From assembly GCA_027491415.1 (NCBI GenBank), contig JAOZFH010000008.1, positions 1 through 49,724 of the forward strand: a stretch of DNA of 49,724 bases, given 5' to 3'. Position 1 is the stretch's first letter. Each line of letters starts with the position of its first letter. A program made the translations under genes and the position numbers. Positions 23,817 through 40,034 of this stretch are shown piece after piece. Under the pieces are notes generated by a model. That model made no database searches, was not told where the DNA came from, and was given only the letters and a program-made list of their open reading frames with translations. Source of the stretch: Thermoproteota archaeon. GTDB lineage: Archaea > Korarchaeota > Korarchaeia > Korarchaeales > Korarchaeaceae.

Positions 23817-25678
23817 CCCCCCTCTAGGTTCTTAGAAGTCCACTGCCGGAGGTAGTGAGGCAGGTCTTCGTGGTACACGACCGTGGCCGTCTCCCTAACG
23901 AAGTCTGGGAGGAGGGAGAAGTAGGCTGGCCTGGCGTAACGGCTGTCCCCGAGCACGAACACGCCTGGCTCGTCTTGAGACCTTATGACCCTGCCCAGAG
24001 CCTGGGAGGCCCTTCGGAGCGCGGGAACCACGTAGGCAAGGTACCTTCCTCTCTCCCTTCCGTGCTCCTTCTCTCTGAACTCGAGCAGGAGCCTGGTCCT
24101 GGTGTTCATTCGATCGAAGGGTATCCCAACCAAGTAGACTCCTACCAGCTCCCTCCCCGGGAAGTCAGCTCCCTCGCTGAACCTCCCGCCCATTGGGGCA
24201 AGCAGGACCGCGGGGCTCTCGGTCTCGGCGGCGCCCTTGAACTCCTCAAGCACCCTCCGGGCCTCGTCCCCGCTCATGTCCTCTCTCTCCACGAAGAGAG
24301 GTCTGCCGAGCCTCGCGCAGGCCTCCGAGACGCCGTCAATTATCTCGCCCTGAATCCTGTAGCTGGCGGTGAACACCGCGACGTTCCCCGGAACGTTCTC
24401 CAAGAAGTCTGAGACGGAATCCACGTAGGCTTCGGCCATGCCGGGCGGTAGCGACTCGCCCCTAGTGGTGAGGTCTCTGGTGATGAAGGACTCCACCCTC
24501 TCTGGATCTACCTCGGAGGGCACGTTGGCGGGGGCGCACGAGTCTAGGCCGACGGCCTCTGCGAAGGCGTCTACCGGGGCGAGGGTGCCGGACATGAATA
24601 TCCTGGCGTAAAACCTGGGCCAGATTTTGGAGAGAAACTCCCTGGCCCGCATGTCCCAGGCCTCGAACTCCAGGCGATCCCGCGCCCTCGAGACTATGAA
24701 GGCCACCCCTTCCACTCCTGCAAGCCTGAGGCACTTCTCGAGGAACTCTCCCAAGTGGTGCAGAGACGACCTGGGCGCCTTCCCTTCGGCGGCCCTCAAC
24801 CTCTGGACCTGGTTACCAAGCTTGATGATGCTGGCGACGTCCTCCTCCTCGAGCCCGCCCGCCGCCAGGAGGTCTAGGGGGTAGAAGACCCCGTCCTCAT
24901 CTATTTTCTGGCCCACTCTCCTCATCTCGAGCAGGATCGATCCGAGACTCTCGAGCAGGCCCTCCTCCTCGGGGAAGTACTCTCTAACCTCGTCGATCGC
25001 CCTCTCCACCGTGGTGGTGGTCACTTTCTCCGAGTTTATCGACATGGCGGCTCCCTCGATGTTGTGGGCCTCGTCCACCACGAGGATAGACTTGCTGAAG
25101 GGCATGATCCTCCTTATTGCCCAGCCAGCCGGTCCCAAGATGTAGTTGTAGCTTAGGGCCACCAGCGTGGCATCTCTCAGGGCCAAGAACTGCAGGTAGT
25201 ATGGGCACATCCTCCTTTCCGCCGACACCCTCATCAGCTCCGAGAATGTCAGCGGCCTGTCGGTCAGGCCCTCCAGTGGGCGAACCCTCCTGTAGTACAC
25301 GCACGTCTCCCTTTTCAGGCGACAGAGGTTTTCGACGGCCCTGTAGTCCCTGATCCCCCTCTCCCTCGCAAGCAGGCACATGTCCCTCTTGCCCCGGAGC
25401 GAGAGTCCGAAGGGCCCCTTACCCCAGCTCTTCCACACGGCCGTCAGCTCCTCTATTGGCCTGTCCGTCTCGTTTCCCGTCCTGACCGCCCAGATGATCC
25501 TCAGGTCGGAGCCCTCCACCTGGTCGAGAAGGGCCGCAAGGACCACCGGGGTCTTGCCGAACCCCGTCGGCGCCTGGATGCATATGTTGGCTCCCCTCCT
25601 CAGGTTGGCCGCTATGAACTCGATCAGTTCGACTTGGCGCTTTCTCGGCCTGTATGGAAAGTATTTGAGGCGGCTCAT
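23813..25678 (-). CDS. xpd: XPD/Rad3/DinG family Fe-S DNA helicase
   Basis: APTGFGKT Walker A, four-Cys Fe-S region, DEAHN, SGTL, SEGADF and QALGRVIRS. Confidence 0.9.
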   Translation of the reverse strand: MSRLKYFPYRPRKRQVELIEFIAANLRRGANICIQAPTGFGKTPVVLAALLDQVEGSDLRIIWAVRTGNETDRPIEELTAVWKSWGKGPFGLSLRGKRDMCLLARERGIRDYRAVENLCRLKRETCVYYRRVRPLEGLTDRPLTFSELMRVSAERRMCPYYLQFLALRDATLVALSYNYILGPAGWAIRRIMPFSKSILVVDEAHNIEGAAMSINSEKVTTTTVERAIDEVREYFPEEEGLLESLGSILLEMRRVGQKIDEDGVFYPLDLLAAGGLEEEDVASIIKLGNQVQRLRAAEGKAPRSSLHHLGEFLEKCLRLAGVEGVAFIVSRARDRLEFEAWDMRAREFLSKIWPRFYARIFMSGTLAPVDAFAEAVGLDSCAPANVPSEVDPERVESFITRDLTTRGESLPPGMAEAYVDSVSDFLENVPGNVAVFTASYRIQGEIIDGVSEACARLGRPLFVEREDMSGDEARRVLEEFKGAAETESPAVLLAPMGGRFSEGADFPGRELVGVYLVGIPFDRMNTRTRLLLEFREKEHGRERGRYLAYVVPALRRASQALGRVIRSQDEPGVFVLGDSRYARPAYFSLLPDFVRETATVVYHEDLPHYLRQWTSKNLEGG

Positions 25679-26910
25679 TGACCTCCACGTTCTCCCACGC
25701 GAGTTACGTGATAAATGGTGGGCGACCCAGAAAGGGAGACCAACCTTCTTCCCATAACTCTCCGGGTCTCAACCAGCCCAAGCTCCTCTAATATGTCGAC
25801 GTTCCTCTTGACGGTCTCGGTCGAGACGCCAAGCCTGTCCGCTAAGAGCCTTATGGGTTGGGGCCCCTCCCTCTCAAGGAGAACTAAGATGTTCCTCCGA
25901 GTTGAATTGCGCAAGGCCACGCGCACCGCGGCGTCCCTCCTCCTGCCCGGCAGAAAGTAGATCCGCTCCCCCAAGATCTCTTCCGACGTGATCAAACCGG
26001 CCCTTTCCATTACCCCCAAGTGATGCTTGAGCGTGCTGCGTGGGATCTGAAGCTGATCGCTGAGCTCGGACACGCTGGCGGCCCCCACATCGTCCAGGAG
26101 GGAGAGGAGTACTGCCCTGATAGGGTGGGATAAAACACCGGATTTGGGAACCCTCTTGACTCTCTGCGGCTGGTGAACCTGCCTCCGCCTGCTGAACGTT
26201 GCTCTCAGGGAGCCCAAGACTACAAGCCCAGCCAGCGAGACCGCGATGAATTCAGGTGGGATTGCGGCGCCTGAAGAAAGATGGTCAGTCAGGACTGCGA
26301 TCACCGTCAAGAGAGGGTCGGGCTCTTCTAGAGCCCACTCACTGAGGTTAGCCGACACCAATACGATCGGTGGGTCTTTCTCGATCAGCATGACCGCGGG
26401 AACTCCATCGTCATATGTGTACACCACCTCCACGCCTGCGGCAGAAACCATCCCCCTCTCAACCCCAGGGGGAATTGTCAGCGTCGGAAGTCCCTCGTCT
26501 TGCCTAAATGGTATGAGTTTCGCGCCCCCGTTGGTATCGTAGGTGCCCCTCAACTGGGCAGGGAGATTTGTAATCTTACCCATCATTTCGATGCCAACGA
26601 ATATTGGGCAGTTTAGGGAGGAAGGGGGGGTCCCGCCGACCAAAATCAGCGCGGCGTCTTGCCTCCCATGTCGAGGAGACCCGGCGTCCAAGACTACTAC
26701 TCCAGAAGTCCCGTTTGCAGAGGCGAGACTCTCCAGTACCTCGTCAGCCGCATATACCCAGACGAGCAATTTGCCCTCAGCGCCGGACGAGGCGGCGGTT
26801 TCTGGGATATACGCCAACAGGAAGAGAGTGAGGCTTGTTAGTACAAGCAGCTGGACCCTCCATCGCTGAATTCTGGGAGGAGGCTTCATTCGCTTTTCAG
26901 ATTTGCCCAT
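25675..26910 (-). CDS. Membrane-anchored transcriptional regulator: signal peptide, extracellular domain, TM, two tandem ArsR-like wHTH
   Basis: N-terminal hydrophobic signal; TM FIAVSLAGLVVLGSL; then HPIRAVLL..SELS..RSTLKHHLGVMERAGLI and NSTRRNIL..LADRLGVSTETVKRNVDILEELGLV. Start may be ATG 26889. Confidence 0.75.
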   Translation of the reverse strand: MGKSEKRMKPPPRIQRWRVQLLVLTSLTLFLLAYIPETAASSGAEGKLLVWVYAADEVLESLASANGTSGVVVLDAGSPRHGRQDAALILVGGTPPSSLNCPIFVGIEMMGKITNLPAQLRGTYDTNGGAKLIPFRQDEGLPTLTIPPGVERGMVSAAGVEVVYTYDDGVPAVMLIEKDPPIVLVSANLSEWALEEPDPLLTVIAVLTDHLSSGAAIPPEFIAVSLAGLVVLGSLRATFSRRRQVHQPQRVKRVPKSGVLSHPIRAVLLSLLDDVGAASVSELSDQLQIPRSTLKHHLGVMERAGLITSEEILGERIYFLPGRRRDAAVRVALRNSTRRNILVLLEREGPQPIRLLADRLGVSTETVKRNVDILEELGLVETRRVMGRRLVSLSGSPTIYHVTRVGERGGQ

Positions 26911-27000: not shown

Positions 27001-27453
27001 TTATTCCCAAGTCAGCCCCCGGATTCTCACGTATCCCGACCTCTCCAGCCGCAGCAAAGCTGAGGTTATAGCAAAGGGAGTAACCCCCCACTCCCCCGCC
27101 AGTTCAGCTGGTCTGAGGGCTCCTCGTTCGGCCAAGTAGGCGAGGAGCCTTTTTTCTAGATCTGACAAGCCAGCGGAGTCGACTGCCTCCGGCAGAACCT
27201 CGGCCATTAGGCGGTACCTCGACGGCATGGGGGGGAGTACCTCCGAGTGGTAGTACGAGAGAGAGGTGAGCACACCGGCCAGCACGGCCAGAGAAGCCGC
27301 CAGCGCTTCCTGCCTGGGAGTTAGAATTGGGGACAGGACCGTTATTACGAGGAGTGACACTACTGTTATTGCCAGACCGAGCTCGACGGCGGCCATCGTC
27401 CTCCTTCTCTTTCTCCTATCCAGGGCCTCTTCTAGCCCGATAACGGCGCTCAC
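27001..27453 (-). CDS. Two-TM membrane protein with C-terminal wHTH
   Basis: Two hydrophobic helices, then LSDLEKRLLAYL..PAELAGEWGVTPFAITSALLRLERSGYV. GTGA overlap with the giant gene. Confidence 0.72.
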   Translation of the reverse strand: MSAVIGLEEALDRRKRRRTMAAVELGLAITVVSLLVITVLSPILTPRQEALAASLAVLAGVLTSLSYYHSEVLPPMPSRYRLMAEVLPEAVDSAGLSDLEKRLLAYLAERGALRPAELAGEWGVTPFAITSALLRLERSGYVRIRGLTWE

Positions 27454-30400
27454 TTCAGCTCACCCTCCCCTTCGAGGATCGTGGGCGAGAGCAGCAGAAC
27501 CTCCAGCCCGAGTTCGCGGGCCACGGAGGCTGCCAGCAAATCAGAAAGGACCACGGCCGTAGCCCCATGGGTGACCGCCGCTATCAGGTTTGTGGCGGAC
27601 TCCAGGCTCATTCCCGTGGTCCTCGCGAGCATGAGGGCCTGAACGAGGGCGCCCTCCTCCAAATCGTGCACCTCCACCGTGCCCCTTCTTATGAGGTCGG
27701 CCAGCGTCGGGCCGACCGCTGAGTCGGCCAGCAGGTCGTCGGTGGTTGTGCGAGTCACGAGGGCCAGCTCTCTCACGCCAGAGAGGCTTCCAGGGCCCCC
27801 CGTGAGGATCGTAAAGCGAATTGAGTGCGAGTCGTAGAGCACGAGCCTTCGCCTCCTGAGTCCTAGAGACAGCAGAAGAAAAGCCAGCATGGGGAGGGCG
27901 GAGGCGCCTCCCATGGCGGCCGTTAGGAAGGTGGGAGGCACCCTTACCACGCTGGAGGCCATCAAACCGAACTCTGGGAGCTCTGCCACGTTGATAACGT
28001 CACCAGCCAAGCCCGGTGGAAGCTTGACCAAGTAGGTGACGGTCGCCGGCGAGCCCGCCCGCGCGAGCCTTAAGACGATCCTCAGGGCGTTCTTATTTGG
28101 CTCCCTCGACGCGTACTCCGCCCCGGATGTTGAGACGCTCTCAGGCAGGAGCGCCGCGGCGTCTGGGAGTCTATCGACAACCACGACGTCCACCGGCCCA
28201 CCGCGCACATAGACCGAGACCGTGTACCTGATCGTCTGGTTTCCAAGGTACGTGCCCACCTTGCTGATCACTGGGCCCGGCGTCGGCGGGGGTCGCACGC
28301 CTATCCTGTACGTCGCCGTATAGTTCTGGGTGTACGCCACGTTGATGAGGGACCCTCCCGCCCCCGCCGTCACCACCGCGTGGAAGACCGCGGCGAAGGC
28401 CCTTCCAGGCGGGAGTTCGGACACCTTCCAGACAAGTCGGCCCGGCGCGGTTTGGTGGGGGGGTGGACTGGCCGAACCCTCGACGAAGGTCAGCCCCACC
28501 GGGAGGACATCTACCAGGGTAAGGTTGGCGGCAGAGCCGTTGCCCACATTTGTCAATACGATCCTGCAGCTGACAACATCTCCTATAGCCACCTCTGCTG
28601 GCGAGCACTCCTTGGATATCGAGAGCTTGGCCAATTCAACAGGTCTCGCAGGGGACACCTCGGGCGCCGGTCCCGGGGGCCTGACGATGACCACCGGAGC
28701 CCTAGCAACCACCTCTCCGCCGTAGAGAACGACGTTGTACACGATGTCAGATCCGACGGGGAGGGAGGAGACCGTCGCGCTGAAGGACAGGATCCACTCG
28801 CCGCCCGGGGGGAGGGGCGGAAGGGTCCACCTGAGGATCGAGCCTGAGGTCTCGGGCTCGACGGAGACCCCGTTCACGCTTGAGGAGCCGGTCACATATG
28901 TCAGCTCCTCCGGAAGCTCGTCCTCCAAGATAATGATCCCGCTCCCAGATCCCCCAACGTTCCTCACGGTGATCGTGAAGGTCACCGCATCTCCCAGGGA
29001 TGCGACGCCTGGTTCAGCATACTTGGAGAACGTCAGTTCGGGCGGGGCGGGAGGTCTCGCGCCCTCGCACGTGAGGTTGGGCTCCAGCAGCGTGGCCTTG
29101 ACGAGGTACGTCCCATTCACCGCCTCGAGCAAGGGAACTTGGACTCCGCCCACCACAGGCACGACGGTGAAGTTAGCCGTGACGTAGTACTCCGGTACCC
29201 CCTTGGCGAGCGGATCTGGCCTCCAGGGACCGACCCAGGTCTCACCGGGTGAGATCGCCTCGCCGATTGCGTAGCAGGAGATCGGCTCGCCATCGGGCGG
29301 GGGGGACCCCCTCCACACGCACACCTCCGTCAGGTTGTAGATGAGACCTCTAGCCAGGTTCGTGAAGCTGGCCCTCACAGAGTAGCCCTCCTCGGACAAG
29401 TTCTTCTCCACATCCAGCGCCGCCGGCCCAACGGCGTGGACGCCCCTTATTCGGTGGAGAAGCAGCGCGTCATCTCTCCTGAAGGTGAGGGACCCCTGTG
29501 GGAACTGCTCGGCACCGGTCAACCTGGCTGAGCCGGTTATGACGAGTTCTATGGTCTCTCCTAGGTCGACATCCCCTATGTCCCACTCTATCGAGTCTGT
29601 TGAGAGGCTAACCGACCCTCCGGTCGAGGTGACCGATCCGGGGGTGAACCAGGCCGGGATAGGCTTCAGGAGGCTCACGTTTCTGAGCCGGTCGGTGAAC
29701 CGGAGGGTTATCCGGAGCGTGAGGTTCGTTGACTCGCCGCAGGCTGGGGTGAAGGGCGTGACCGTCTCAAGGGCCGACACCGGCGGAGTCAGAAGACCCG
29801 GATCCACCTCGTACCTCCATCTCCGATAGTCTCCCGGCCTGAGTTCCGGTACGTGGAGGGGCGGGGAGACTGGCGAGTCGCTTGGGGTAGGGTAGTCGGG
29901 GTAGAACTCCATCCCGACAGAGTCCAGTCGAATCCATATGTCTGAGACGACGTCGCCGGTCGGATTGGAGACCGTCAGGAATCCCCAGACCCTCCTGACC
30001 TCGTAGGTCGAGTCCGGGTAGAGCACGATGTCGACGAACTCAGAGGCCGATATGTTCAGGTAGCTCTCCGTCGGGTCAACTCCCAGGGTAAAGGCCTCGA
30101 ACAGGTTGTAGTCCACCAATCCACAGGCAGACGACCTGAGGGTGTAGGTGATGAGCTGGCTGGAGTCGGGGGACCCAGACGGGCCGAGGTCGACCGACCA
30201 CCAGTACACGCCGCCGGAATTTCCCTGGTATGGGGGCGAGGGTGACTCGATCAGCATGTTCGCCGGAACGATGTCGTACACCCTCACCCCAGGCGCAGGC
30301 GTCGGATTCCAGTTGGTGACGTTCAGCGTGACCTCGTAGTAGCAGGGGGCCGTCGGGGTGAGGGACTTCCCCACGGAGACATTCAGCCTCACCTCTCCTA

Positions 30401-33400
30401 TCCTTGCGCTCGGGCCGAACTCCGAAGTCCCGGCGGCCGAGAGGGTGGTGGTGCCAGTTAGCAGGCTGCCGGCCTCGGGTCTCAGCCTTGCGGGGAGTGA
30501 AGACACAGGGATCCAGCCTGAGAACTCCCCGTTGGCGTCGGAGACGAGGCTCCCGAGGTAGATGAACCCTTCCCCGTAGTACCTAGAACCATAGAGGTTG
30601 CCGTCGAGGTTGTCTCCCGCCTGAGAGTTGTTGACCATGAAGATCTCCACGGTCGCGCCGGCGAACTCCGGAGACCCAGACCCGGCCGACTCGGAGTTCA
30701 CGAACCCCTCCACGTACACGTGGGTTCCGTTGTAGGCCGCGAAGGTGATCACCGGGTAGTCCACCTTCAGGTTCGGGGCCCCGTGGTTGAGTGCCCCGTC
30801 GTTGACGGTCACATGATCTCCGTTCGGGTTCCCCGCACCCGCCAGGGTGGTGTTATCGATGTCCACACCCAGCCCGGTGTTGTTGAACATCGAGTTCTGG
30901 GTCAGGTTGTTGTCCAAGGCGTTGCCCGGCGACCCCCAACTAGGTGGAGGTACGGTCCTAGCCACGACGACCCCGCCCCCGTAGTTGGAGTAGATCACGT
31001 TGCGGCTGACTACACTGTGGTTTCCAAACAGCCTCACCCCGCCAGCCTCGCCCTGGTAAGGCTCCCAGCCGTTGAGCGTAATGTTGTTCTCCTCGACCCT
31101 CATCCCACCGAGAGAAAACCAGCTGTCTATTCCATAGCACGTGTTGTTGGCAATTAGGTTGCCCCTCACGACAACCCCGCCAGCCGACCCCTCCACCGAT
31201 GTCCCGTCCGGCCCTCCCGGGAGGGTCGGATCAAACACCTGCTTCAGGCCGTTGGAGTAGATTAAGCACCCCTGAATCAGGCCGGAGGTGACCTGAGAGC
31301 CTGTAAAGTGGACCCCAGTCCCCCAGTTGTACGAGATGACTGAGTGAAGGATCTCCGTGGAGTCTCCCTCCACCAGTATGCCGAGCCTGACGTTCCTCTC
31401 TTCTCCCAAAGTCCCGGGGTCACGGCCGTCCGGCCTGATCCCCACGAAACACCCGTAGATCCGTACCTGAGTCGCCCCTGACCCTACGTGTATGGCCCCT
31501 CCAGACCCATAAGTCGAGTAAAACCCGTATATAGAGAGATTCGCTATCTTCGCAGGACCGGCACCGATGACAAGGCCGTCTGACTCCAAGCCTTGGCCGT
31601 AGATGGCGACTTCCGGTAGGCTGTAACGCGGGAGCGCAAACTCGTCCCCGGTTCCCGGCACACCGTCTGGACCGGATCCTACCGCCCCCCCGGGCCCGTA
31701 AACTCCGGGATTAGCGTCGTTGACAGAGAGCGAGGGTGTGAACACGGTTCCATTGACCTGGGTCCCAGCGTCGGTAATCGTCGGGAGCTGACCCAGGCTG
31801 GGGTTGACATCGATCCTCCACCAAGAGTGCTCGGGGTCGGGCTGAACGTTCTGTGGAGTCATGAACACGAACCAACTCCTGTCACCACCAGAAATGGCGT
31901 TTGCGTTTAGCAGGAACTGCCTCAGGGTTCCCTGTGCCACCCTGGGGTTTGACGGGTCGTGGTCAACATCCAATGTGTTGACGACGACGTCGAAGCTGAA
32001 TCCGAAGTCCAGGCTCTCTCCAAGATAGTCTCCAGCGGAGACCAGTGAGACATGCTCACACCTGGTTCCAGGCCTCCAAAGCGTCAGCTCGTCGACGTAG
32101 TACTCATATCCGCCGTGAACGACTATTCTGTCGAAGGATGTGTAGGTTGTATCGGTAGCCCTCACTTGCGCCAGAAGGTCGCCGCTCAGATCGTACACTT
32201 GGAATGCGATTGTGCCGTTAGCGAAGAAGATCATCTTCCAAAAGTACCACTCGTTCTCTGGCGGATCCCAAGAGACGCGAGCCGAGATCCTCGTTGGATC
32301 GCCTCCGTCCCTCCTGTCTATCCAGATCCTCCCCAACAAGTGGTCCACGGTGAACGTGTAGCCGTTGAATGAGGGGTCCTCCAACCCGATCCTGTCTCGA
32401 GCTCCACCCGACCAAGGACTCGGCCTGTACGTGTACCCTTGGAGGATCACCCCGCGGCCGACGGTTCCGCCGACAGGCTTGTACCCGCCGTTAGGGTCAT
32501 TCCTAGAATCCTTCTTCAGGCTGAACGATCCCTCGTAGGCCTGCTCGTCTGACTGGTAGACTGTCCCGAGGCCGTAATCCGACCAGCCGGCCCACGTCTC
32601 AAATCCATCGTAGAGAACTACCTCTAGGCTGCAGGCGTCACTAACCTCTGGATCTCTCCCACCGAAGTCTGGGGAGCCAGTGTGGGCAGCGCCGTCCCAG
32701 CTAACGACATAGGTTCCCTCTGCCCAGGTCTCGACCCAGTCTCTGCCAGCGTTGAGGCCTCTTGGCGAGGTGACGGTCCTAGAGTCGACGGCTATCCAGT
32801 AGGTGTCGTTTCTGGCCAGGAAGCTGTAGCCTCCAGCTGAGCTCGTCTCCGTCACTCGGACGAGTGGGTCGGTCAGTGGATCAAAGCTTCCGTCCCCGTT
32901 GTCCAAGAACAGCCCGACTCTGACGCCAGAAACCGGTAGATCTACTCCCGGAGAGAACCCGCTGGCCAGCGGCCATTCATCTTCAAAGACTATTCCTGAC
33001 AGGTTCGCCCTGACCTCAAATGTCAGCTCGTCCACGTTGAAGAAGTCGGTGTAGTTCACCTCGTCCGGCCTCCCGGGTATGTGAATCAGGCCGTCGTACG
33101 AGGGGGAGAGGATCGACGCGGAGGAGTCGTTCGCGAGGACGACTATTCTCCAGTCTCCGAGCCGGTCTCCGGGCGATATCGAATAGACGTTGTCGTTCGT
33201 GAAGATCCCGTCGCCGGCGACGGCGTCACCGTGAGTTCCGTCGTCGTACAGCGCCGCAGACGAGACTAGAGCGCCTGAAGGGTCATACACGCGCGCCAAT
33301 ACGCCCCCGGTGGGCGCCGCGTCAACGCGTGCGACGACCTTCAGGGGTCCAAAAGTCTGCAGCCCCCGGGGCTCGGTCAGGTTGACCCCGAAGCCCTCCA

Positions 33401-36400
33401 CCATGTCCGCCTGAACCGTCGCAGAGAGGTTGCACCAGATCAGGTTGTCGATGTAAGCCCAAGTCTTGTACCAGTCGTCCGAGTAGGTGTGCACAGTAAA
33501 GTTGACGCGGATCGTCTGCCCCGCGTAAGGCGTGAGATCGTAGTCCGTCGCTATCCACCAGCCGGAGTCTGCGAAGGTCCCGTAGGAATACCCCACATTT
33601 GGGTTGTATACCAATATCGTGTCCAGCGTGTTACCGGCCAGGTCTCTGATAGTCACGACGAGGTAGTCGAAATACGACGAGTCCCAAGACTCGACCCTGA
33701 ACCAGAAGGTGAGGTTTCCTCCCCCGCTCGGGACGGCTATCTCATATGCAGCCCACGTGTCCTCGCCGGTGGCCGTGTAGTCCTCAGACACGTTAACCCT
33801 GTACCCGAGGACAAGCGAGTAGTTCCCCACGGCTGGCAGGCCGTCGTCCACGATGAATCGAGGGTTCGGAGGGGGGGATCCGAGGGTTCCGCCGTCGATC
33901 GTGTAGGGCCCCCTGGGGCTAGCCTGTATGATCGACGAGATCCCGGCTGGGGATTGCCCGTAGAGCCAGTAAGACAGATCCCCTAGGTCCACCCCGGTGT
34001 TCAGCGTGTTGTAGACGGGCTTGGCGCCGTTCTCCAAGATGTCGAAGTAGACGTAGAAGGTCTCCTGCGCGGTCAGGTCGTTTGGGAGCAGGAACTTGAT
34101 TATCCCGGTTCCCCGGCCGGTCGGTATGTACTCCTGCTTGGGAACCAGGCTCCCGCTCGGGTCGACCACTCTCACCGAGTTGTTGTCGAAGGTCCCTGAG
34201 ACGTTCAGGTCGGTCAGGAGGTCCGTGAAGTTGACCTCCACGACGACCATCTGATACTGGTAGCCCGCGGGCACCGTGATGGGAACCCTGTAGTGCCAGT
34301 CGTCGCCGGAGTTGGGACCGTCGGGGTCCCACCACTCGGGGACGCCGTAGATAACGTAGTAGTACCTGTTAGGGTCGTCGTAGAATACGAGGGTGGAGCC
34401 CCTCTGGTACCAGATCTCTACCTTGCGAGTCTCGTTTCCCAGGGCCAGAACCTCCTTCACTACAGCCCCAGGCGGCAGATCGACCGTTATCCGCCTCCAC
34501 TCTCCGTCACTCTTGTTGGCCAGCTCCACAAGGATCTTGCCCGGGGAGAGGAGGACCTGCCTGGAGGGCGGCGCGGCCGGGGCACCGTTCAGGAGGGCCT
34601 CCACTATCGCCATGCCCGCGGAGTCAAACCAGAACTCCTCGCCGGAGACCTCGAAGTCGGCGCCCCTCCAGTGAACCGTGACGTGCTTGGCCTTGAGGCC
34701 AATCCTATGGGACCCCGGCCGCCTAACCTCCAGCCAACGGACCAGCCACGTGCCGTCCTCCCCCTTGGCCTCGAACTCAGACAGGACCTTTACCAGGGCA
34801 GGTTTCTTTGGCTGCTTCGGCGCCTTCTCGGGGGCGGGAATCCCGGAGACGCCAACGCCCCCCCTCCCGGAGGGGCCGCGCTCTTGGGAGGGCGGAAGCT
34901 CCAAAACGATGATCAGTGAGACCTTCCCGTCGCTCCGGCCGTCGGGGTCTCCTGAGCCTCCGTCGCTGAGGGAGAGCGTCCTTCCCCCCACCCCATACCG
35001 CGCTCTGAGGGGTGCCCCGTCCGTCCCCACTACAACGAGGACCCCCTCCACGCCGGAAAGTCTGATTTCGGCGGAGAAGCCGGGCTCTCCCTCGAGAGTG
35101 AGCAGTAGGCCGACCACGTTGTCGCGCCCTCCCCAGGGGCCCTCAGGCGGTTCGACGACCCGCGCGTCAGAGATGCAGGCCCCCTCAGCCGCCAGCGAGG
35201 CCCCTCCAACCGACATCACCGGCGAGCACGGCCCAGGCGGCTGCCTCACCGCGATGACGCATGATTCGGACGCGCGAAGGCCACCCAGGGTGGCGCTTAC
35301 CTCCAGCGTGTAGTTCCCGGGCTCCAGCGGGCCGAGGGGTAGGGTGAAGTTGCCCGGCGCGGGCGCCGAGAGGGCTCCCCGGAGAGCCTCCTCACCGCCC
35401 CGGCCCCTGAGCGCGTACTCAACGGAAGCGTTGCCGGGCGGGGCGCCGGAAAGGAGCAGACCGACCTCGACCGAGACCTCCTCGCCTGAGGGGAACTCGA
35501 CCACCTCAGGGAGTCGGATCCCGAGGGTGGCGTTCGGAGAGGGCGCGCCGGGCGTGAGGACTACGAACCCCTCGGCTCTGGCCGAGAGGCCGCGCCAGGT
35601 GGCCAGCACCGAGAAAGAGTAGTTCCCGGGTGGGAGGTCCGGCAGCGTCAGCGCGGCCAGCCCGTCTTCTGTCGTCCCGGAGGCGGAGAAGTTCGCGGGG
35701 CCCGTGAGGGTGAGATTCACGCCCGCTCCAGACAGAGGTCCAGCAGCGACGGCCTTGACGCTCACCATGGCCAGCCCGACCGACGCGTTCAACCCCACGT
35801 TCAGAACGTCAACCCACAGCGGGACTTCCGCAATCCCGACGGCCCCCGCCCTCCACCCACGGGCGAGGAGGTCGTACCTCCCGAGTTCGACGACGCTCGT
35901 CAGGGGATACTCCGCCAGCCAGGTCGACTCGTTCACATAGACTGGGTCCAGCCGGATGACCCTCCCCCCGGGCGTGACCAAGGACACGTTGACACCCTCG
36001 AGGGACACGTTCGCGGTTATCCAAGCTGAGATGGACTCACCAGGAGCGTATGCGTTCCTTTGGAGGTGTATCCTGAGCTCAACCTTGGGTGAGGGGACCG
36101 TCGCCAGCAACTCTGTGCTCCCGACTATGCCCCTGGAGTCGACGGCCCGGAGATCCAGACTGTACGTCCCGGGCATCCAGGGCTCGAAGCTGACGTTGGT
36201 GGATCCAGAGACCGGAACATCCGTCAGCGCCATAGACGCGTTGTCTGGGCCGACGACGACGAGCGAAACGTTGGCCTCTACGGGCCTCCCGGTCAGGGCG
36301 CTCTCGACACTCACGGCGACCGTGCAGACATCCCACCTGCACGACCAGTCCGCTGAGAGGAGGATCGAGTCGACCGTGAAGTTGGCGACGGCCTCCAGCT

Positions 36401-36773
36401 CTCCGACCTCGGCCCTCAGGTAGTAGATCCCAAGGGGGATTGGCGAGATCAGGGGGAGTGGAAAGCTGAGGATCCAGGTCCCGTCTACCTCGCGCAGGTA
36501 GGCCGAGAGGTTGATCGTACGGTTGTTGGGTGTTATCAGCAGCACGGTGGGGCTGGGGGCCCCCTGGAGAGAGAGGTTGGCCGTCACGTTCTCCCAGGGG
36601 TTGAGGTAGTCCCTAGCCAGCACAATCGAGATGCCCTCGCCTCGGGCCGCGGTCGGGGTCGGAGGGCTGAACTCCTGGGCTCTCGCGGCCTCGGCCGAGC
36701 GCAGGCTCGGATGAGCCGCGGCTATTACGAGAGCCGCCAGCAGCAGACCTGCGAACTCGGCCGACGGCCTCAC
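27450..36773 (-). CDS. Giant (3107 aa) cell-surface adhesin-like protein with DUF11/isopeptide-type repeats, TM and C-terminal PIN-like domain
   Basis: Signal peptide; Ig/MG-like repeats; DUF2341-like WWD..WHYRVPI; choice-of-anchor-X-like LYDDGTHGDAVAGDGIF; beta-helix region (about 30850-31600); permuted subunit domains; three DUF11-like repeats; TM plus RRRR; cytoplasmic tail. Confidence 0.85.
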   Translation of the reverse strand: MRPSAEFAGLLLAALVIAAAHPSLRSAEAARAQEFSPPTPTAARGEGISIVLARDYLNPWENVTANLSLQGAPSPTVLLITPNNRTINLSAYLREVDGTWILSFPLPLISPIPLGIYYLRAEVGELEAVANFTVDSILLSADWSCRWDVCTVAVSVESALTGRPVEANVSLVVVGPDNASMALTDVPVSGSTNVSFEPWMPGTYSLDLRAVDSRGIVGSTELLATVPSPKVELRIHLQRNAYAPGESISAWITANVSLEGVNVSLVTPGGRVIRLDPVYVNESTWLAEYPLTSVVELGRYDLLARGWRAGAVGIAEVPLWVDVLNVGLNASVGLAMVSVKAVAAGPLSGAGVNLTLTGPANFSASGTTEDGLAALTLPDLPPGNYSFSVLATWRGLSARAEGFVVLTPGAPSPNATLGIRLPEVVEFPSGEEVSVEVGLLLSGAPPGNASVEYALRGRGGEEALRGALSAPAPGNFTLPLGPLEPGNYTLEVSATLGGLRASESCVIAVRQPPGPCSPVMSVGGASLAAEGACISDARVVEPPEGPWGGRDNVVGLLLTLEGEPGFSAEIRLSGVEGVLVVVGTDGAPLRARYGVGGRTLSLSDGGSGDPDGRSDGKVSLIIVLELPPSQERGPSGRGGVGVSGIPAPEKAPKQPKKPALVKVLSEFEAKGEDGTWLVRWLEVRRPGSHRIGLKAKHVTVHWRGADFEVSGEEFWFDSAGMAIVEALLNGAPAAPPSRQVLLSPGKILVELANKSDGEWRRITVDLPPGAVVKEVLALGNETRKVEIWYQRGSTLVFYDDPNRYYYVIYGVPEWWDPDGPNSGDDWHYRVPITVPAGYQYQMVVVEVNFTDLLTDLNVSGTFDNNSVRVVDPSGSLVPKQEYIPTGRGTGIIKFLLPNDLTAQETFYVYFDILENGAKPVYNTLNTGVDLGDLSYWLYGQSPAGISSIIQASPRGPYTIDGGTLGSPPPNPRFIVDDGLPAVGNYSLVLGYRVNVSEDYTATGEDTWAAYEIAVPSGGGNLTFWFRVESWDSSYFDYLVVTIRDLAGNTLDTILVYNPNVGYSYGTFADSGWWIATDYDLTPYAGQTIRVNFTVHTYSDDWYKTWAYIDNLIWCNLSATVQADMVEGFGVNLTEPRGLQTFGPLKVVARVDAAPTGGVLARVYDPSGALVSSAALYDDGTHGDAVAGDGIFTNDNVYSISPGDRLGDWRIVVLANDSSASILSPSYDGLIHIPGRPDEVNYTDFFNVDELTFEVRANLSGIVFEDEWPLASGFSPGVDLPVSGVRVGLFLDNGDGSFDPLTDPLVRVTETSSAGGYSFLARNDTYWIAVDSRTVTSPRGLNAGRDWVETWAEGTYVVSWDGAAHTGSPDFGGRDPEVSDACSLEVVLYDGFETWAGWSDYGLGTVYQSDEQAYEGSFSLKKDSRNDPNGGYKPVGGTVGRGVILQGYTYRPSPWSGGARDRIGLEDPSFNGYTFTVDHLLGRIWIDRRDGGDPTRISARVSWDPPENEWYFWKMIFFANGTIAFQVYDLSGDLLAQVRATDTTYTSFDRIVVHGGYEYYVDELTLWRPGTRCEHVSLVSAGDYLGESLDFGFSFDVVVNTLDVDHDPSNPRVAQGTLRQFLLNANAISGGDRSWFVFMTPQNVQPDPEHSWWRIDVNPSLGQLPTITDAGTQVNGTVFTPSLSVNDANPGVYGPGGAVGSGPDGVPGTGDEFALPRYSLPEVAIYGQGLESDGLVIGAGPAKIANLSIYGFYSTYGSGGAIHVGSGATQVRIYGCFVGIRPDGRDPGTLGEERNVRLGILVEGDSTEILHSVISYNWGTGVHFTGSQVTSGLIQGCLIYSNGLKQVFDPTLPGGPDGTSVEGSAGGVVVRGNLIANNTCYGIDSWFSLGGMRVEENNITLNGWEPYQGEAGGVRLFGNHSVVSRNVIYSNYGGGVVVARTVPPPSWGSPGNALDNNLTQNSMFNNTGLGVDIDNTTLAGAGNPNGDHVTVNDGALNHGAPNLKVDYPVITFAAYNGTHVYVEGFVNSESAGSGSPEFAGATVEIFMVNNSQAGDNLDGNLYGSRYYGEGFIYLGSLVSDANGEFSGWIPVSSLPARLRPEAGSLLTGTTTLSAAGTSEFGPSARIGEVRLNVSVGKSLTPTAPCYYEVTLNVTNWNPTPAPGVRVYDIVPANMLIESPSPPYQGNSGGVYWWSVDLGPSGSPDSSQLITYTLRSSACGLVDYNLFEAFTLGVDPTESYLNISASEFVDIVLYPDSTYEVRRVWGFLTVSNPTGDVVSDIWIRLDSVGMEFYPDYPTPSDSPVSPPLHVPELRPGDYRRWRYEVDPGLLTPPVSALETVTPFTPACGESTNLTLRITLRFTDRLRNVSLLKPIPAWFTPGSVTSTGGSVSLSTDSIEWDIGDVDLGETIELVITGSARLTGAEQFPQGSLTFRRDDALLLHRIRGVHAVGPAALDVEKNLSEEGYSVRASFTNLARGLIYNLTEVCVWRGSPPPDGEPISCYAIGEAISPGETWVGPWRPDPLAKGVPEYYVTANFTVVPVVGGVQVPLLEAVNGTYLVKATLLEPNLTCEGARPPAPPELTFSKYAEPGVASLGDAVTFTITVRNVGGSGSGIIILEDELPEELTYVTGSSSVNGVSVEPETSGSILRWTLPPLPPGGEWILSFSATVSSLPVGSDIVYNVVLYGGEVVARAPVVIVRPPGPAPEVSPARPVELAKLSISKECSPAEVAIGDVVSCRIVLTNVGNGSAANLTLVDVLPVGLTFVEGSASPPPHQTAPGRLVWKVSELPPGRAFAAVFHAVVTAGAGGSLINVAYTQNYTATYRIGVRPPPTPGPVISKVGTYLGNQTIRYTVSVYVRGGPVDVVVVDRLPDAAALLPESVSTSGAEYASREPNKNALRIVLRLARAGSPATVTYLVKLPPGLAGDVINVAELPEFGLMASSVVRVPPTFLTAAMGGASALPMLAFLLLSLGLRRRRLVLYDSHSIRFTILTGGPGSLSGVRELALVTRTTTDDLLADSAVGPTLADLIRRGTVEVHDLEEGALVQALMLARTTGMSLESATNLIAAVTHGATAVVLSDLLAASVARELGLEVLLLSPTILEGEGELK

Positions 36774-36787
36774 GGTCTCTTCCCCCC

Positions 36788-37603
36788 TCAGGGTGGCCTC
36801 GCCCTTGGGGCGAGACGAGGCCTTCTACCCTCGGACCTCCTGAGGGCCCGAGAGGCGATTAAGACGAGCATGACCACTATCAAGGCCCCCCAAAAGACCA
36901 GGTATCCCTTGATGGGGAGCATGGGTAGTGGGAGGGGGCTGAACTCCACCCATACCCTCACCCTCCCGCCCTCGGGCAGCCCCGACAAGTCCCACTCCAC
37001 TGACTCGCCCCTAGACCCAGGGCCGGGTGAGGCGTAGGTCACCCTAGAACCGGCCGGAGGGAAGATGACCACCCTTCCCCTCTCGACCCTGTTGGAGATC
37101 GGCCCTATCCCAAAGGCGAACTCGTCAAACAGCACGCCGCGCGCCACTCCGTTCTCTATCCTGAAGGAGAGCTCGAAGGACTCCCTCTGACCCGGTCTGA
37201 GGGGCTGCCACAGGGAGTAGCGGAGAACCAGGGAACCGTTCTCCCAGAGCGGGACGACCTCCATGTCGACGTTCCTAGTCAGATCCCTCGCCGAGAGGAC
37301 GGTCACCGAGAGGTTGACCCTCCTCTGGCCGGGCAGCGGGAGGCCGCCAGCGCTCCTCTGCCTGATCCCCGAGACGGGCAGCTTCCCGTACCCGGGCACC
37401 ACCGGGACCCGGCCGTCGTTCCGCAGGGTGGCCCTCACCGTGACAGTCACCGCGCCGTCCTCCGAGACGCGCGCCGTCACCTCGAGCCTCTCGTACACCA
37501 GCGGATTGTACTCACCCTGCGCGCCGAGGGCGTGCAGGGTGGGGAGGCACAGGGCTATCACGAGCGCTGACGCGAAAAAAGCGTGGAGGGGACGGGAGGG
37601 CAT
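36788..37603 (-). CDS. Secreted, C-terminally membrane-anchored accessory protein of the surface cluster
   Basis: Signal peptide from ATG 37603, beta-rich body (VVPGYG), then EFSPLPLP..GYLVFW TM and a basic tail. Confidence 0.72.
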   Translation of the reverse strand: MPSRPLHAFFASALVIALCLPTLHALGAQGEYNPLVYERLEVTARVSEDGAVTVTVRATLRNDGRVPVVPGYGKLPVSGIRQRSAGGLPLPGQRRVNLSVTVLSARDLTRNVDMEVVPLWENGSLVLRYSLWQPLRPGQRESFELSFRIENGVARGVLFDEFAFGIGPISNRVERGRVVIFPPAGSRVTYASPGPGSRGESVEWDLSGLPEGGRVRVWVEFSPLPLPMLPIKGYLVFWGALIVVMLVLIASRALRRSEGRRPRLAPRARPP

Positions 37604-37635: not shown

Positions 37636-39801
37636 TCACTGGGAGGGGGACTTCCTCCTCCTCTCGAGGAGGACCCCCACGACCACCAGGACGGCGACGG
37701 CGATGACCAGCCACTGCTCGAAGGTGGCCGCGCCGAACTCGACGCCCGCCGAGGGCATGAACACGGCGGTGGCATCCAGCGTGTTCCTGGGATCGACGCC
37801 CACCACGAAGATGTCGGTGAGGTTGTAATCGCCCTTGCCGATCACGCAGTAGTGGACAACCACAGGATTGTACACATCCATGTTGAGGTTCTCATAGGTC
37901 CCCTTGGCGGACACGACCACCCTCCCGGCGCCGGTGTCGAGGGTGTTCTGTACCCACGAGACGAGGAAGTCGGTTCCGCCGGCGGCTATGGTGCTGCCCT
38001 CGGCGTAGTTGGTTCCGTTGACGTTAATCGTGCTGCCGTCGACCGGATAGACGGTCCACTGCCTAGTAGACCCGTCGGCCAGCGTGACCGTGACCGTCTT
38101 AACGTTGGCCGCCCCGGGCCCGTCGAACCACTCCGCGAAACCCATCTGCGGTGCCGGAAGCGGGTAGGTCTTCCACAGGTATCCCTTCTGGTAGCCAGTG
38201 AGGCCGGTCACAACCTGGCTGTAGTCCGGCGGAGAGTTCGAGTCGGCGTCTTGGGCCAGCATTTCGATCGGGAAGAACATCATGCTCTCGTTGCTCGCGT
38301 CGCTCTCCTTTGCCATGAAGTTGAGTGGGATTAGGTCATAGAACTCGACGTAGGGCGTCATCCACTCCCCGGCGTTGTAGAGCTCGATCGTTATGCAGGT
38401 CATGTTGTTCACGGGCCCGGGCCTGACCTCCTTCTTCGCCTTGACCAAGTAGCCCCTGACCACCCAGATCATCTCCCTCACGATAAACTTGGACCTCCCG
38501 TCGGGCCCCACACCGACGGTCGTGTTGGTGTAGTTCATCCAGCCGTAGGTCTCGTCCCTCTCTATCCTAGCCCTGAACTCGGCCCAGACCTTCGGAACCG
38601 ATCCGGAGGAGAAGCTGAACGGGCCGTACTGATAGGAGGCGCTGGCCTCTCCCGGGCCTATGACAGCTATCGGAGAGCCGACCTGCTCATTCTCGGAGCC
38701 CGCTATTGGAGTGCCCTCAGGGTTCGCCGTGGTGGTGGCCCACAGCTTGGTGTAGACGATCTCGTAGTCGAAGGTCCCGCTCGTGTCGTACACCACAAGG
38801 GTCTCGTACCAGGTAGACGGAGTCGAGGTGTCCTGTTCCTTCTTGGCCTCGAAGTCGGCATCCCCCACCGCGTAAAGATAGCCCACGCGGCTTCCGCTTA
38901 TCGCCCTCGCAAGCGTGAACCTGAGGTAGATCGTTCCCATGTGGACCTTCTGGGTGCTTCCACCGACCTCTGAGAGGTCGGGAGTTCCCCTAACGACGAC
39001 TCCCGTGAGGTTCTCGTTGGAGTTCGCCGCCACGGTGAACCAGCCGTCCGGCCAGCTGCCGTCGCCCGTCCAGTTGAGCTGCTTTCCGTCGGTGGAGAGT
39101 CCAGACCCACCACTCGTGGGAGTGCCCGCTGAAGTGAACACCGGGTTGCCGGCGGCATCCCGCCAGCCGTCACTCGGCCCGTTGTCCGGGGGCAGGATCT
39201 TCCGGAGCTTGACGCTGACGTCCCACGGGAGATCGTTCACTACGGTTATGTTGATCTCGATGTCCTGAGTCTGCCCGTCCACTATCTTCTCGGGGTCTAT
39301 CGTCTCACTCACCCTTATCGGGGGGCAGGTCGAGATGGACGCTCCGTCGATGGAGTATGTTAGAACAACCCTGTCACCCGGCTGAAGTTCGGTTATGTGG
39401 ACCCAGTGCATGCTGTTCGCATCGCCGAATCCGCTGGAGGGGTAGGAGTTAAGGACCCATGAGGGTATCGAAGCCCCCGGGGCCGACACCTCAACGTAGG
39501 CGTAGGACGGCTTCTCTGACACGGACAGGGGGGTGAGATAGGTCAGGGTCGTGTCGAGCCAGATGGGGAGCCACACGTCGAACACCCTCTCCGTCGCCCC
39601 GTTGTATATCGTGACGTTGCCCGTGACGTTCCACGCCCCGCAGTCGTAGAAGAGGCCGTCGGTCTCCAGGGTGGCGTTAACGATCTCAGTCAGGTACACG
39701 CTCAGCGGCGCGTCTGGAGTCGCCTGCGAGACTTGAGAGGAGCCTGGGGCCACTAGGAGGGCAACCAGGAGGGCGACTCCGAGTACCCCTCTGCGATTCA
39801 T
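37636..39801 (-). CDS. Secreted beta-rich surface protein; candidate major fibre subunit (GVDP-linker-TM-RRRK C-terminus)
   Basis: Signal peptide MNRRGVLGVALLVALL after a GGTGG SD-like element; Thr/Gly/Asn-rich with several NxT/S sequons; C-terminal DIFVVGVDP...WLVIAVAVLVVVGVLLERRRK. Confidence 0.75.
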   Translation of the reverse strand: MNRRGVLGVALLVALLVAPGSSQVSQATPDAPLSVYLTEIVNATLETDGLFYDCGAWNVTGNVTIYNGATERVFDVWLPIWLDTTLTYLTPLSVSEKPSYAYVEVSAPGASIPSWVLNSYPSSGFGDANSMHWVHITELQPGDRVVLTYSIDGASISTCPPIRVSETIDPEKIVDGQTQDIEINITVVNDLPWDVSVKLRKILPPDNGPSDGWRDAAGNPVFTSAGTPTSGGSGLSTDGKQLNWTGDGSWPDGWFTVAANSNENLTGVVVRGTPDLSEVGGSTQKVHMGTIYLRFTLARAISGSRVGYLYAVGDADFEAKKEQDTSTPSTWYETLVVYDTSGTFDYEIVYTKLWATTTANPEGTPIAGSENEQVGSPIAVIGPGEASASYQYGPFSFSSGSVPKVWAEFRARIERDETYGWMNYTNTTVGVGPDGRSKFIVREMIWVVRGYLVKAKKEVRPGPVNNMTCITIELYNAGEWMTPYVEFYDLIPLNFMAKESDASNESMMFFPIEMLAQDADSNSPPDYSQVVTGLTGYQKGYLWKTYPLPAPQMGFAEWFDGPGAANVKTVTVTLADGSTRQWTVYPVDGSTINVNGTNYAEGSTIAAGGTDFLVSWVQNTLDTGAGRVVVSAKGTYENLNMDVYNPVVVHYCVIGKGDYNLTDIFVVGVDPRNTLDATAVFMPSAGVEFGAATFEQWLVIAVAVLVVVGVLLERRRKSPSQ

Positions 39802-40034
39802 GGTAACCACCTGACCACCACACAATATCAAGCATTTAGCTTGATATTGCACATCTTCACTTGTTATTTTCAGCGATCCGCCACATTAAAACGGTTGTAG
39901 CCGCCGCTCCAAACGACTCAACTAGGAAGCGATGAAACGTTTCCTCGAGGCCCACCTACCCCTCAGGTAAGCGCGTAGCTTAAGTGAAGCCGCCTAGTGA
40001 GTTTAAAAACCGTGGATGGGGGTGAGCGCCGCCC

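Follow-up and report, generated by a model that had tools for sequence, protein, structure and literature searches.

C-terminal sorting signals such as LPXTG, PGF-CTERM and PEP-CTERM, paired respectively with sortase, archaeosortase A and exosortase, place a motif, a single membrane helix and a basic cluster behind varied protein heads. The "Rosetta stone" idea concerns proteins that are separate in some genomes and form one chain in others, and in engineered self-complemented pilins an N-terminal strand is placed directly after the end of a domain. Features that recall each of these are found in a 49,724-nucleotide stretch of DNA from a Thermoproteota archaeon of the class Korarchaeia (assembly GCA_027491415.1, contig JAOZFH010000008.1, positions 1 to 49,724; hereafter the window, meaning the whole stretch analysed), in which four tightly packed minus-strand genes encode a membrane-anchored surface protein (the subunit), a middle protein of the P0003 family, a giant and a winged-helix protein. 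The giant contains domains homologous to the end and to the start of the subunit, in that order, joined at the tetrapeptide GVDP, and we incline to the view that this junction is the scar of a fusion between a tip gene and a base gene.

The available excerpts of a paper on DUF11/CLIPPER domains (PMC12617251), in which archaeosortases are also mentioned, describe DUF11 as a CnaA-like fold with a Lys/Asp/Asn isopeptide triad (Lys715, Asp748 and Asn806 in 9IFR). The giant resembles the fibrillar adhesins whose stalks consist of such domains in having three bona fide DUF11 domains before its membrane helix, and in the order passenger, Ig-like stalk and anchor. With strand-donation pili (chaperone-usher pili, and also archaeal threads and tat-fimbriae as excerpted from PMC9715654 and PMC11821415, respectively), the locus shares a small operon composed of a major subunit and accessory surface proteins.

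Rotated domain order in the giant

The subunit is made up of a signal peptide, three domains denoted A, B and C, a further domain (D-type) that ends in GVDP, a tether, a membrane helix and a basic tail. In the giant, a D-type domain (D0) is followed directly by a copy of A-B-C (Table 1). Between the single sequences this resemblance is weak: BLASTP aligned subunit residues 151-204 with giant residues 2306-2357 (E 1e-4), the GVDP strand (E 0.1) and the start of D (E 0.8), three pieces that are collinear after rotation. Comparison by hhalign with profiles made it significant. With 24 homologues of the subunit aligned (42-86% identity to that of the window), subunit residues 48-408 matched residues 2237-2518 within the giant segment 2100-2600 (probability 96.7, E 4.3e-10); against a profile of seven giants obtained by protein search (38-100% identical in the junction region), subunit residues 46-428 matched giant residues 2235-2535 (probability 98.0, E 1.6e-13). 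The D domain of the subunit (460-695) and D0 (2125-2236) matched in two pieces flanking an insert of about 140 residues in the subunit, namely the start (470-511 with 2132-2172, E 1.4e-6) and the end including GVDP (669-688 with 2215-2234, E 1.7e-7). Both domains have in common a Cys pair read from the alignments (C486/C669 in the subunit, C2144/C2217 in the giant). The three DUF11 domains of the giant were more distant from subunit D, with E 7e-3 for the first, a weak link to the second (E 2e-4, probability 45) and no match to the third.

In the window's own genome, which is 96% complete, the D0 and A-B-C profiles of the giant were run against 14,818 six-frame open reading frames (ORFs) and each recovered the subunit at E of about 4e-4; the sole other match was a DUF11-rich giant on contig C4 (D0 profile, E 9.6e-5). 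This second giant ORF (C4, 25869-34463, minus strand; 2865 aa from stop to stop) contains many weak DUF11-like stretches. Across related loci, the D0 and A-B-C profiles matched subunit orthologues down to E 9e-12 and 5e-10. The profile E-values exclude a chance similarity between giant and subunit, and the order D followed by A-B-C is real. Neither the subunit profile nor the giant profile matched anything in PDB sequence searches, and no longer fused relatives of the subunit were found, which is weak evidence.

A previous sequence-only reading of the window had located both GVDP motifs correctly, had equated the last domain of the subunit with the giant domain that ends in GVDP, and had recognised the N-terminal domains of the subunit directly after that motif. 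All the pairs of short motifs on which it relied lie within the profile alignments; for one of them (GVPEYY/SVPKVW, residues 2525/418) this refers to the alignment range.

Junction states in related giants

Giants were collected from the protein search and from genome scans, and removal of duplicates left 24 junction rows, plus the giant of locus L013 and the tip protein of genome G020. G[VIL]DP is kept at the junction in all 26, and the motif is likewise present in 24/24 subunit homologues, which bears out the conservation of G[VI]DP expected by the sequence-only reading. Its placing of the junction exactly at GVDP was also upheld: 23 of the 24 rows are exact fusions, in which 2-7 residues separate G[VIL]DP from A's first strand, and in all seven giants of the protein search this strand follows within a few residues.

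Two relatives retain additional sequence at the position of the giant's three-residue joint. L013 is a single open frame of 2670 aa whose D0 ends in G-L-D-P and is separated from A by 77 in-frame residues that read as a tether, a hydrophobic helix, a basic cluster and a signal-peptide-like stretch. G033 has the same layout with a different insert, of 52 residues, between D0 and A, and a tether of just 9 residues. The codon expected to be the stop is one base off a stop codon in both (TGT in L013, TGG in G033), and 3 nt after it GTG or ATG opens the signal peptide; the simplest reading of this arrangement is that two genes in the same frame were joined by loss of the stop. A split form occurs in G020, whose operon holds a base only (862 aa; loci L012/L036), in which a signal peptide of its own precedes A-B-C, three DUF11 domains, a helix and a cytoplasmic tail. 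The tip gene of this genome lies on another contig and encodes 2681 aa, ending 13 residues past GVDP without a helix or remnants of a downstream A. A metagenome scan yielded four loci and no further junction type.

The helix and signal peptide lying between D0 and A in the intermediates, together with the split form in G020, argue for an origin from two genes. Furthermore, the DUF11 domains occupy the place of D after C, which indicates that the base is collinear with the subunit and that D0 is an extra domain derived from the tip. The giant is therefore better interpreted as a tip (passenger, D0 and anchor) fused end to end with a subunit-like base (A-B-C, three DUF11 domains and helix). On balance, it seems to resemble a rearranged subunit because, in this group of archaea from hot springs, two neighbouring anchored proteins fused at the site where the tip lost its anchor and the base its signal peptide.

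In the ancestor proposed here, tip and base would have been encoded by two adjacent genes in the same frame. The tip would have comprised a signal peptide, a large passenger, a D-type domain ending in G[VIL]DP, a tether, a membrane helix and a basic tail, and the base, a paralogue of the subunit, would have carried a signal peptide and A-B-C, then a stalk of three DUF11/CLIPPER domains, and lastly a membrane helix with a cytoplasmic tail. The two genes would have become one when the stop codon was lost, a state present in two lineages (L013 and G033), and excision of the tether, helix, basic cluster and signal peptide would then have produced the state found in 23 junction types. The outcome would be one chain that carries the passenger on a long stalk, running from the membrane through the three DUF11 domains, C-B-A and D0 to the passenger. 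The anatomy of the excised forms is explicable without any processing. As with Rosetta stone fusions, tip and base are separate in one genome and one chain elsewhere; unlike in those, the membrane anchor and the signal peptide have been deleted to the residue, and stop-loss intermediates survive. These loci thus form a rare natural series from two proteins to one, and the split, hairpin and fused forms represent natural constructs for studying the docking or ligation of the D end to the A start and the role of Asp-Pro.

The sequence-only reading had described the segment as a circularly permuted copy of the subunit and as a genetic fusion of the junction between two neighbouring subunits. The rotated domain order and the fused D-to-A junction stand, but the segment is an end-to-end fusion rather than one permuted copy, and the partners are a tip and a base gene. 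A classical circular permutation, in which a tandem duplication of the subunit would have been trimmed to leave D0-A-B-C as a permuted copy of the same three-dimensional module, is very improbable. The adjacency of the subunit and giant genes would suit it, as would the shared Cys pair and the fact that subunit D, and not a DUF11 domain of the giant itself, is the nearer relative of D0. However, the helix and signal peptide of the intermediates point to two different genes, about 2100 residues of unrelated passenger precede D0, and D0 lacks the insert of about 140 residues that is present in 24/24 subunit D domains. The place of D after C is taken by the DUF11 domains, to the first of which the start of subunit D aligns weakly (E 0.028). 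Homologous domains are rotated, as in a permutation, but the moved domain is not absent from its old place, nor is there a single copy. A tandem-duplication origin of D0-A-B-C is unlikely. Behind its C domain, the giant has a short strand that by eye looks like the first one of D; the idea that it is a relic of that D strand was discarded, since the resemblance was not significant in hhalign.

Probable excision of the anchor and the signal peptide

Phylogenetic trees were built for both sides of the junction. The base-side tree of A-B-C, rooted on subunits, left L013 and the G020 base at its unresolved base, placed G033 as sister (support 99) to the exact fusions of Methanodesulfokora/Korarchaeum, and contained two further exact-fusion clades. 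In the tip-side tree, L013 and G033 were grouped (support 96, long branches) beside an exact fusion, and the helix-keeping forms were nested among exact fusions. Both trees call for at least two excisions, provided that a helix and signal peptide once lost are never regained.

The residue that follows G[VIL]DP is Pro in 20/23 exact fusions and in 0/118 anchored relatives, where R (45) and A (18) are the commonest. Free A-type proteins show x-Pro after the predicted signal-peptidase site, with which the residue after GVD in the giant aligns (both by eye), and a Pro after G[VIL]DP would be expected in the fusions if this second Pro stems from the x-Pro start of mature A. In the fusions, the conserved Glu in the first strand of A stands 9-14 residues from GVD, most often 11, and the predicted mature N-terminus lies 11 residues from the same Glu in the subunit, the L012 base and L013. 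This equal spacing indicates that the excision starts directly behind GVDP and stops at roughly residue 2 of the mature base protein; in exact fusions, it leaves none of the roughly 24 tether residues. The exactness of the excision is the strongest point for a functional relationship between the D end and the A start, at which it hints, and it would be equally expected if exposed linkers were selected against.

Several observations weigh against the two-gene origin or its details. L013 and G033 come from metagenome-assembled genomes (MAGs), in which a sequencing error at the stop is possible. The two quick trees disagree in detail and have long branches, so the number of independent excisions is soft, and signal-peptidase sites were judged by eye. 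In all exact fusions the excision has its left edge at G[VIL]DP, though it could have left about 24 residues of the tether in place; a neutral deletion does not need such an exact edge, which hints at a constraint on D-to-A spacing. The G020 tip lacks an anchor and yet is an intact ORF, which would be easier to understand if D0 binds something, for instance the base. Finally, the G, D and P of GVDP are kept in 8/8 D0 domains, better than the isopeptide-type triad, suggesting that Asp-Pro may do more than cap a strand.

The G[VIL]DP anchor module

A profile search of 1.8 billion representatives returned 107 relatives at E <= 1e-3, and with 31 close homologues added, 134 proteins were examined. 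G[VIL]DP was present in 118 of them (GVDP in 64, GLDP in 31 and GIDP in 23), nearly always 45-85 residues from the C-end, and the 16 proteins without it were mostly fragments or unrelated repeats. Where the membrane helix could be located (85 proteins), it starts 21-31 residues after the Pro, and 23-27 residues after it in 83/85. When 105 tails were stacked ungapped on GVDP, the G, D and P were each found in 105/105, Glu stood at +27 in 72/105, Arg peaked at +47 and +48, after the helix, and an upstream signature, G-x-G-x-[YF]...[DN]-x-[FY], was strong. The module stands behind varied heads, including subtilase, LamG-type lectin folds and a NosD beta-helix, and was found in Methanococcus aeolicus, an Archaeoglobaceae MAG, a Euryarchaeota MAG and Ca. 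Pyrohabitans. Within the subunit family, G685, V686, D687, P688 and R689 are invariant (24/24), as is P700 in the tether. An AlphaFold2 model of the subunit (mean pLDDT 79.4, pTM 0.59) is all-beta from residue 50 to 685, disordered from 685 to 715 and helical from 712 to 733, which puts the end of the fold at residue 685.

The conservation of the module, its fixed spacing, its varied heads and the modelled fold end lead to the conclusion that G[VIL]DP invariably caps the D-type domain at its C-terminus, and that this domain is the final folded portion of a widespread archaeal anchor or pedestal module. The motif was not made by the fusion. In its tip half, the giant is a typical protein of this class that lost its own tether and helix. 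GVDP had been proposed by the sequence-only reading as a processing or sorting motif; it is indeed invariant before the membrane helix, but it closes a domain that many unrelated archaeal surface proteins have there, and it does not owe its existence to the junction. A full-text literature search found no paper joining GVDP with archaea, and two recent Pfam families, PF27408 and PF27409, lie on these proteins; the module is apparently undescribed so far. With its invariant Asp-Pro and fixed-length tether, it extends across phyla in archaeal surface proteins.

In the subunit, Glu712 immediately precedes the membrane helix. This Glu, 24 residues past the Pro at the outer helix edge (window 37711-37725; relatives P0005-P0145), keeps a rigid spacing while the tether sequence is variable, and a fixed spacing despite a variable tether is unusual for a plain linker.

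Judging from sequence patterns, D-type domains look like distant relatives of DUF11/CLIPPER domains. Giant residues 2582-2687 and 2717-2816 match PF01345 (E 7.6e-34; 116.9 bits, with a cut-off of 24.6) and TIGR01451 (E 1.5e-28), and each of the giant's three DUF11 domains shows the Lys/Asp/Asn pattern by eye. The subunit matched 0 Pfam and 0 NCBIfam families, and D0 is covered by no family match; a search of the ESM Atlas with a subunit homologue gave weak DUF11 leads (scores 0.86 or lower). D and D0 seem to begin with the same pattern as DUF11 and to carry the triad's Lys and Asp. At positions whose equivalence is taken from sequence patterns, K474 and D506 of subunit D are each kept in 24/24 and N677 in 20/24, and D0 has the Lys in 7/8, the Asp in 6/8 and the Asn in 2/8. 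D and D0 differ from DUF11 in that they fall short of the Pfam model, in the poor conservation of the triad Asn in D0, and in a signature of their own, G-x-G-x-Y...F-x-x-G-[VIL]-D-P, in a domain that is always the last before the tether and helix. The second DUF11 domain of the giant ends in GVRPP at the site equivalent to GVDP (by eye).

Possible docking or ligation of the D end to the A start

The precision of the junction could also reflect a contact between proteins. In a non-covalent head-to-tail docking, the C-terminal face of D would bind the N-terminal strand or face of A, subunits would chain or tile on the membrane, the tip would bind the base likewise, and the giant would be a self-complemented tip-base pair. 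As in the engineered pilins, A's N-terminal strand stands directly after the end of D0. We regard such docking as possible, though rather doubtful. The apposition of D and A persists across three covalent arrangements (fused, hairpin-tethered and split), the D-side excision is exact in 23/23 junction types, the G020 tip is intact without an anchor, and subunit and giant co-occur among genomes of the class (see below), all of which would suit docking. Nevertheless, LamG or NosD heads directly precede A without a D domain in relatives outside the class, which makes the N-terminus of A look like a general attachment point. Comparison with DUF11 gives D0 a full strand set, with no missing strand evident, and an exact-fusion giant has no D end or A start left open to subunits. 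Also in keeping with docking, the mature N-termini of the subunit, the base and the middle protein are alike, the sole hhalign match between the P0003 and subunit families running from N-terminus to N-terminus, weakly (E 0.0025, probability 12).

Unlike in strand-donation pili, no PapD-like chaperone was detected, each protein of the locus keeps a membrane helix, and there is no sign of a D domain lacking a strand. The P0003 protein was considered as a PapD-like chaperone and rejected: a single-sequence match to CupB2 (3q48, E 0.0014) lay partly over signal peptides and was lost with a 14-member profile, which gave no PapD-like match in PDB or Pfam. The family has no Pfam or PDB relative.

A covalent assembly, which the sequence-only reading had put forward alongside donor-strand complementation, would go further. 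The Asp-Pro bond of G[VIL]DP would be cut, by autocatalysis or by an enzyme, and its Asp attached to the amino terminus of the A-type protein that follows; tether and helix would be released, tip-shaft-base fibres would form, and the giant would be a pre-ligated product that might itself be cut. This is improbable in our view. Asp-Pro is invariant wherever the module is present (105/105 stacked tails, 24/24 subunits and 8/8 D0 domains), and what follows GVD in the giant aligns without gaps to the predicted mature N-terminus of free A proteins (about 11 residues to the Glu, by eye). The succession of motif, spacer, Glu, helix and Arg cluster resembles a sorting signal. LPXTG, PGF and PEP signals differ from it, however, since the G[VIL]DP motif is invariant 23-27 residues from the helix and is accompanied by a conserved Glu at the helix edge. 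Moreover, no sortase (PF04203; control positive in 3/14 genomes) and no exosortase or archaeosortase (PF09721 and TIGR04178; controls positive in M. jannaschii, H. volcanii and M. acetivorans) was found in the 96%-complete genome, with 0 matches in each case. The tether would also be an odd leaving group to discard, being well conserved in the subunit family (R689 and P700 invariant), and G033 retains merely 9 residues of it.

There is chemical precedent in that Asp-Pro bonds can self-cleave, as the excerpts of PMC10880436 state for the GDPH site in VWD domains, and in archaeal thread pili strand donation occurs together with isopeptide bonds between subunits, according to those of PMC9715654. 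The GDPH site is similar in that an invariant Gly-x-Asp-Pro lies on the surface of a beta domain outside the cell. The fold is another one, however: no VWD domain was found here, and His is absent after Asp-Pro (0/118), where R, A, V, M, I, Q, L, T, S, E, F or K stands instead.

It is equally hard to credit that G[VIL]DP, about 23 residues, Glu, helix and Arg cluster would together constitute a new archaeal processing signal, whose Asp-Pro would be opened when hot and ligated to the next A; the opener may in that case be the protein itself or an enzyme such as the conserved middle protein. If this were true, tip-shaft-base fibres would be assembled covalently without a sortase, and the exact-fusion giants would be a gene-encoded image of the ligation product. 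The middle gene of the operon is the only uncharacterised candidate for an assembly factor.

Distribution of the operon

Among 40 genomes of the class, the junction region of the giant was detected in 20 and the subunit in 20; both were present in 18, neither in 18, and one alone in 4, all of which are <90% complete. The 18 genomes with neither include 8 high-quality ones, one of them of the same genus. The candidacy of the subunit as a universal S-layer protein of the class is weakened by its restriction to 20/40 genomes and its absence from the 8 high-quality ones; given this patchy distribution, the operon looks like an accessory surface structure.

The middle gene accompanies the subunit in 17/17 subunit loci, and a downstream ORF matching the giant profiles is found in 10/17. 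In L007 and L015, long downstream ORFs that are putative giants end at the contig edge before the junction, and the remaining loci are too short to show a downstream giant. At L010 (9986-12035), the subunit lies in two overlapping frames of 541 and 226 aa next to an intact giant. One stop codon falls within the subunit match in G010, G014, G030 and G034 (TGA) and in G033 (TAA), where the match may overrun the gene end.

Gene organisation in the window

The features of the operon are collected in Table 1. The genes flanking it are housekeeping genes. The start Met assigned to the subunit is the one used by its homologues, the relative P0005 being likewise 721 aa long.

Table 1. Operon genes and their parts in the window (positions counted from the first nucleotide of the window).
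Feature	Coordinates	Strand	Description
Subunit gene	37636..39801	-	721 aa; likely start M18 of ORF opening at 39852
Subunit domains A-B-C	38458..39720	-	Residues 45-465; begin at predicted mature N-terminus
Subunit D-type domain	37789..38457	-	Residues 466-688; insert of ~140 residues; ends in invariant GVDP
Subunit GVDP	37789-37800	-	Residues 685-688
Subunit tether, membrane helix and basic tail	37639..37788	-	Tether 689-712; helix about 713-729
Middle gene (P0003 family)	36788..37603	-	Signal peptide, ~200-aa ectodomain with invariant VVPGYG, C-terminal membrane helix
Giant gene	27450..36773	-	3107 aa
Giant passenger	30402..36773	-	Residues 1-2124; signal peptide, Ig-like repeats, beta-helix
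Giant D0 domain	30072..30401	-	Residues 2125-2234; ends in GVDP
Giant GVDP	30072-30083	-	Residues 2231-2234
Giant three-residue joint, GVDP to first strand of A	30063..30071	-	Residues 2235-2237
Giant A-B-C copy	29067..30062	-	Residues 2238-2569
Giant three DUF11/CLIPPER domains	27933..29039	-	Residues about 2579-2702, 2716-2830, 2834-2947
Giant membrane helix, Arg cluster and cytoplasmic tail	27453..27920	-	Helix 2952-2972; tail conserved, ~130 aa
Fourth gene	27001..27453	-	Membrane-tethered winged-helix (MarR-like) protein; start overlaps giant's stop

The beta-helix of the giant passenger is right-handed and spans residues 1798-1961. Residues 1174-1194 (window about 33192-33254) give a short match to the NCBIfam family choice-of-anchor X (NF041940, E 2.5e-8), a class whose name refers to proteins that swap C-terminal sorting signals. 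The cytoplasmic tail of the giant (27453-27857, minus strand) is without a family match and also occurs in the 862-aa base-only form. Beyond the MarR-like gene, a 411-aa protein with two winged-helix domains is encoded at 25675-26910 (minus strand). The conserved tail, the MarR-like protein and this 411-aa winged-helix protein may constitute a link from the cell surface to gene control.

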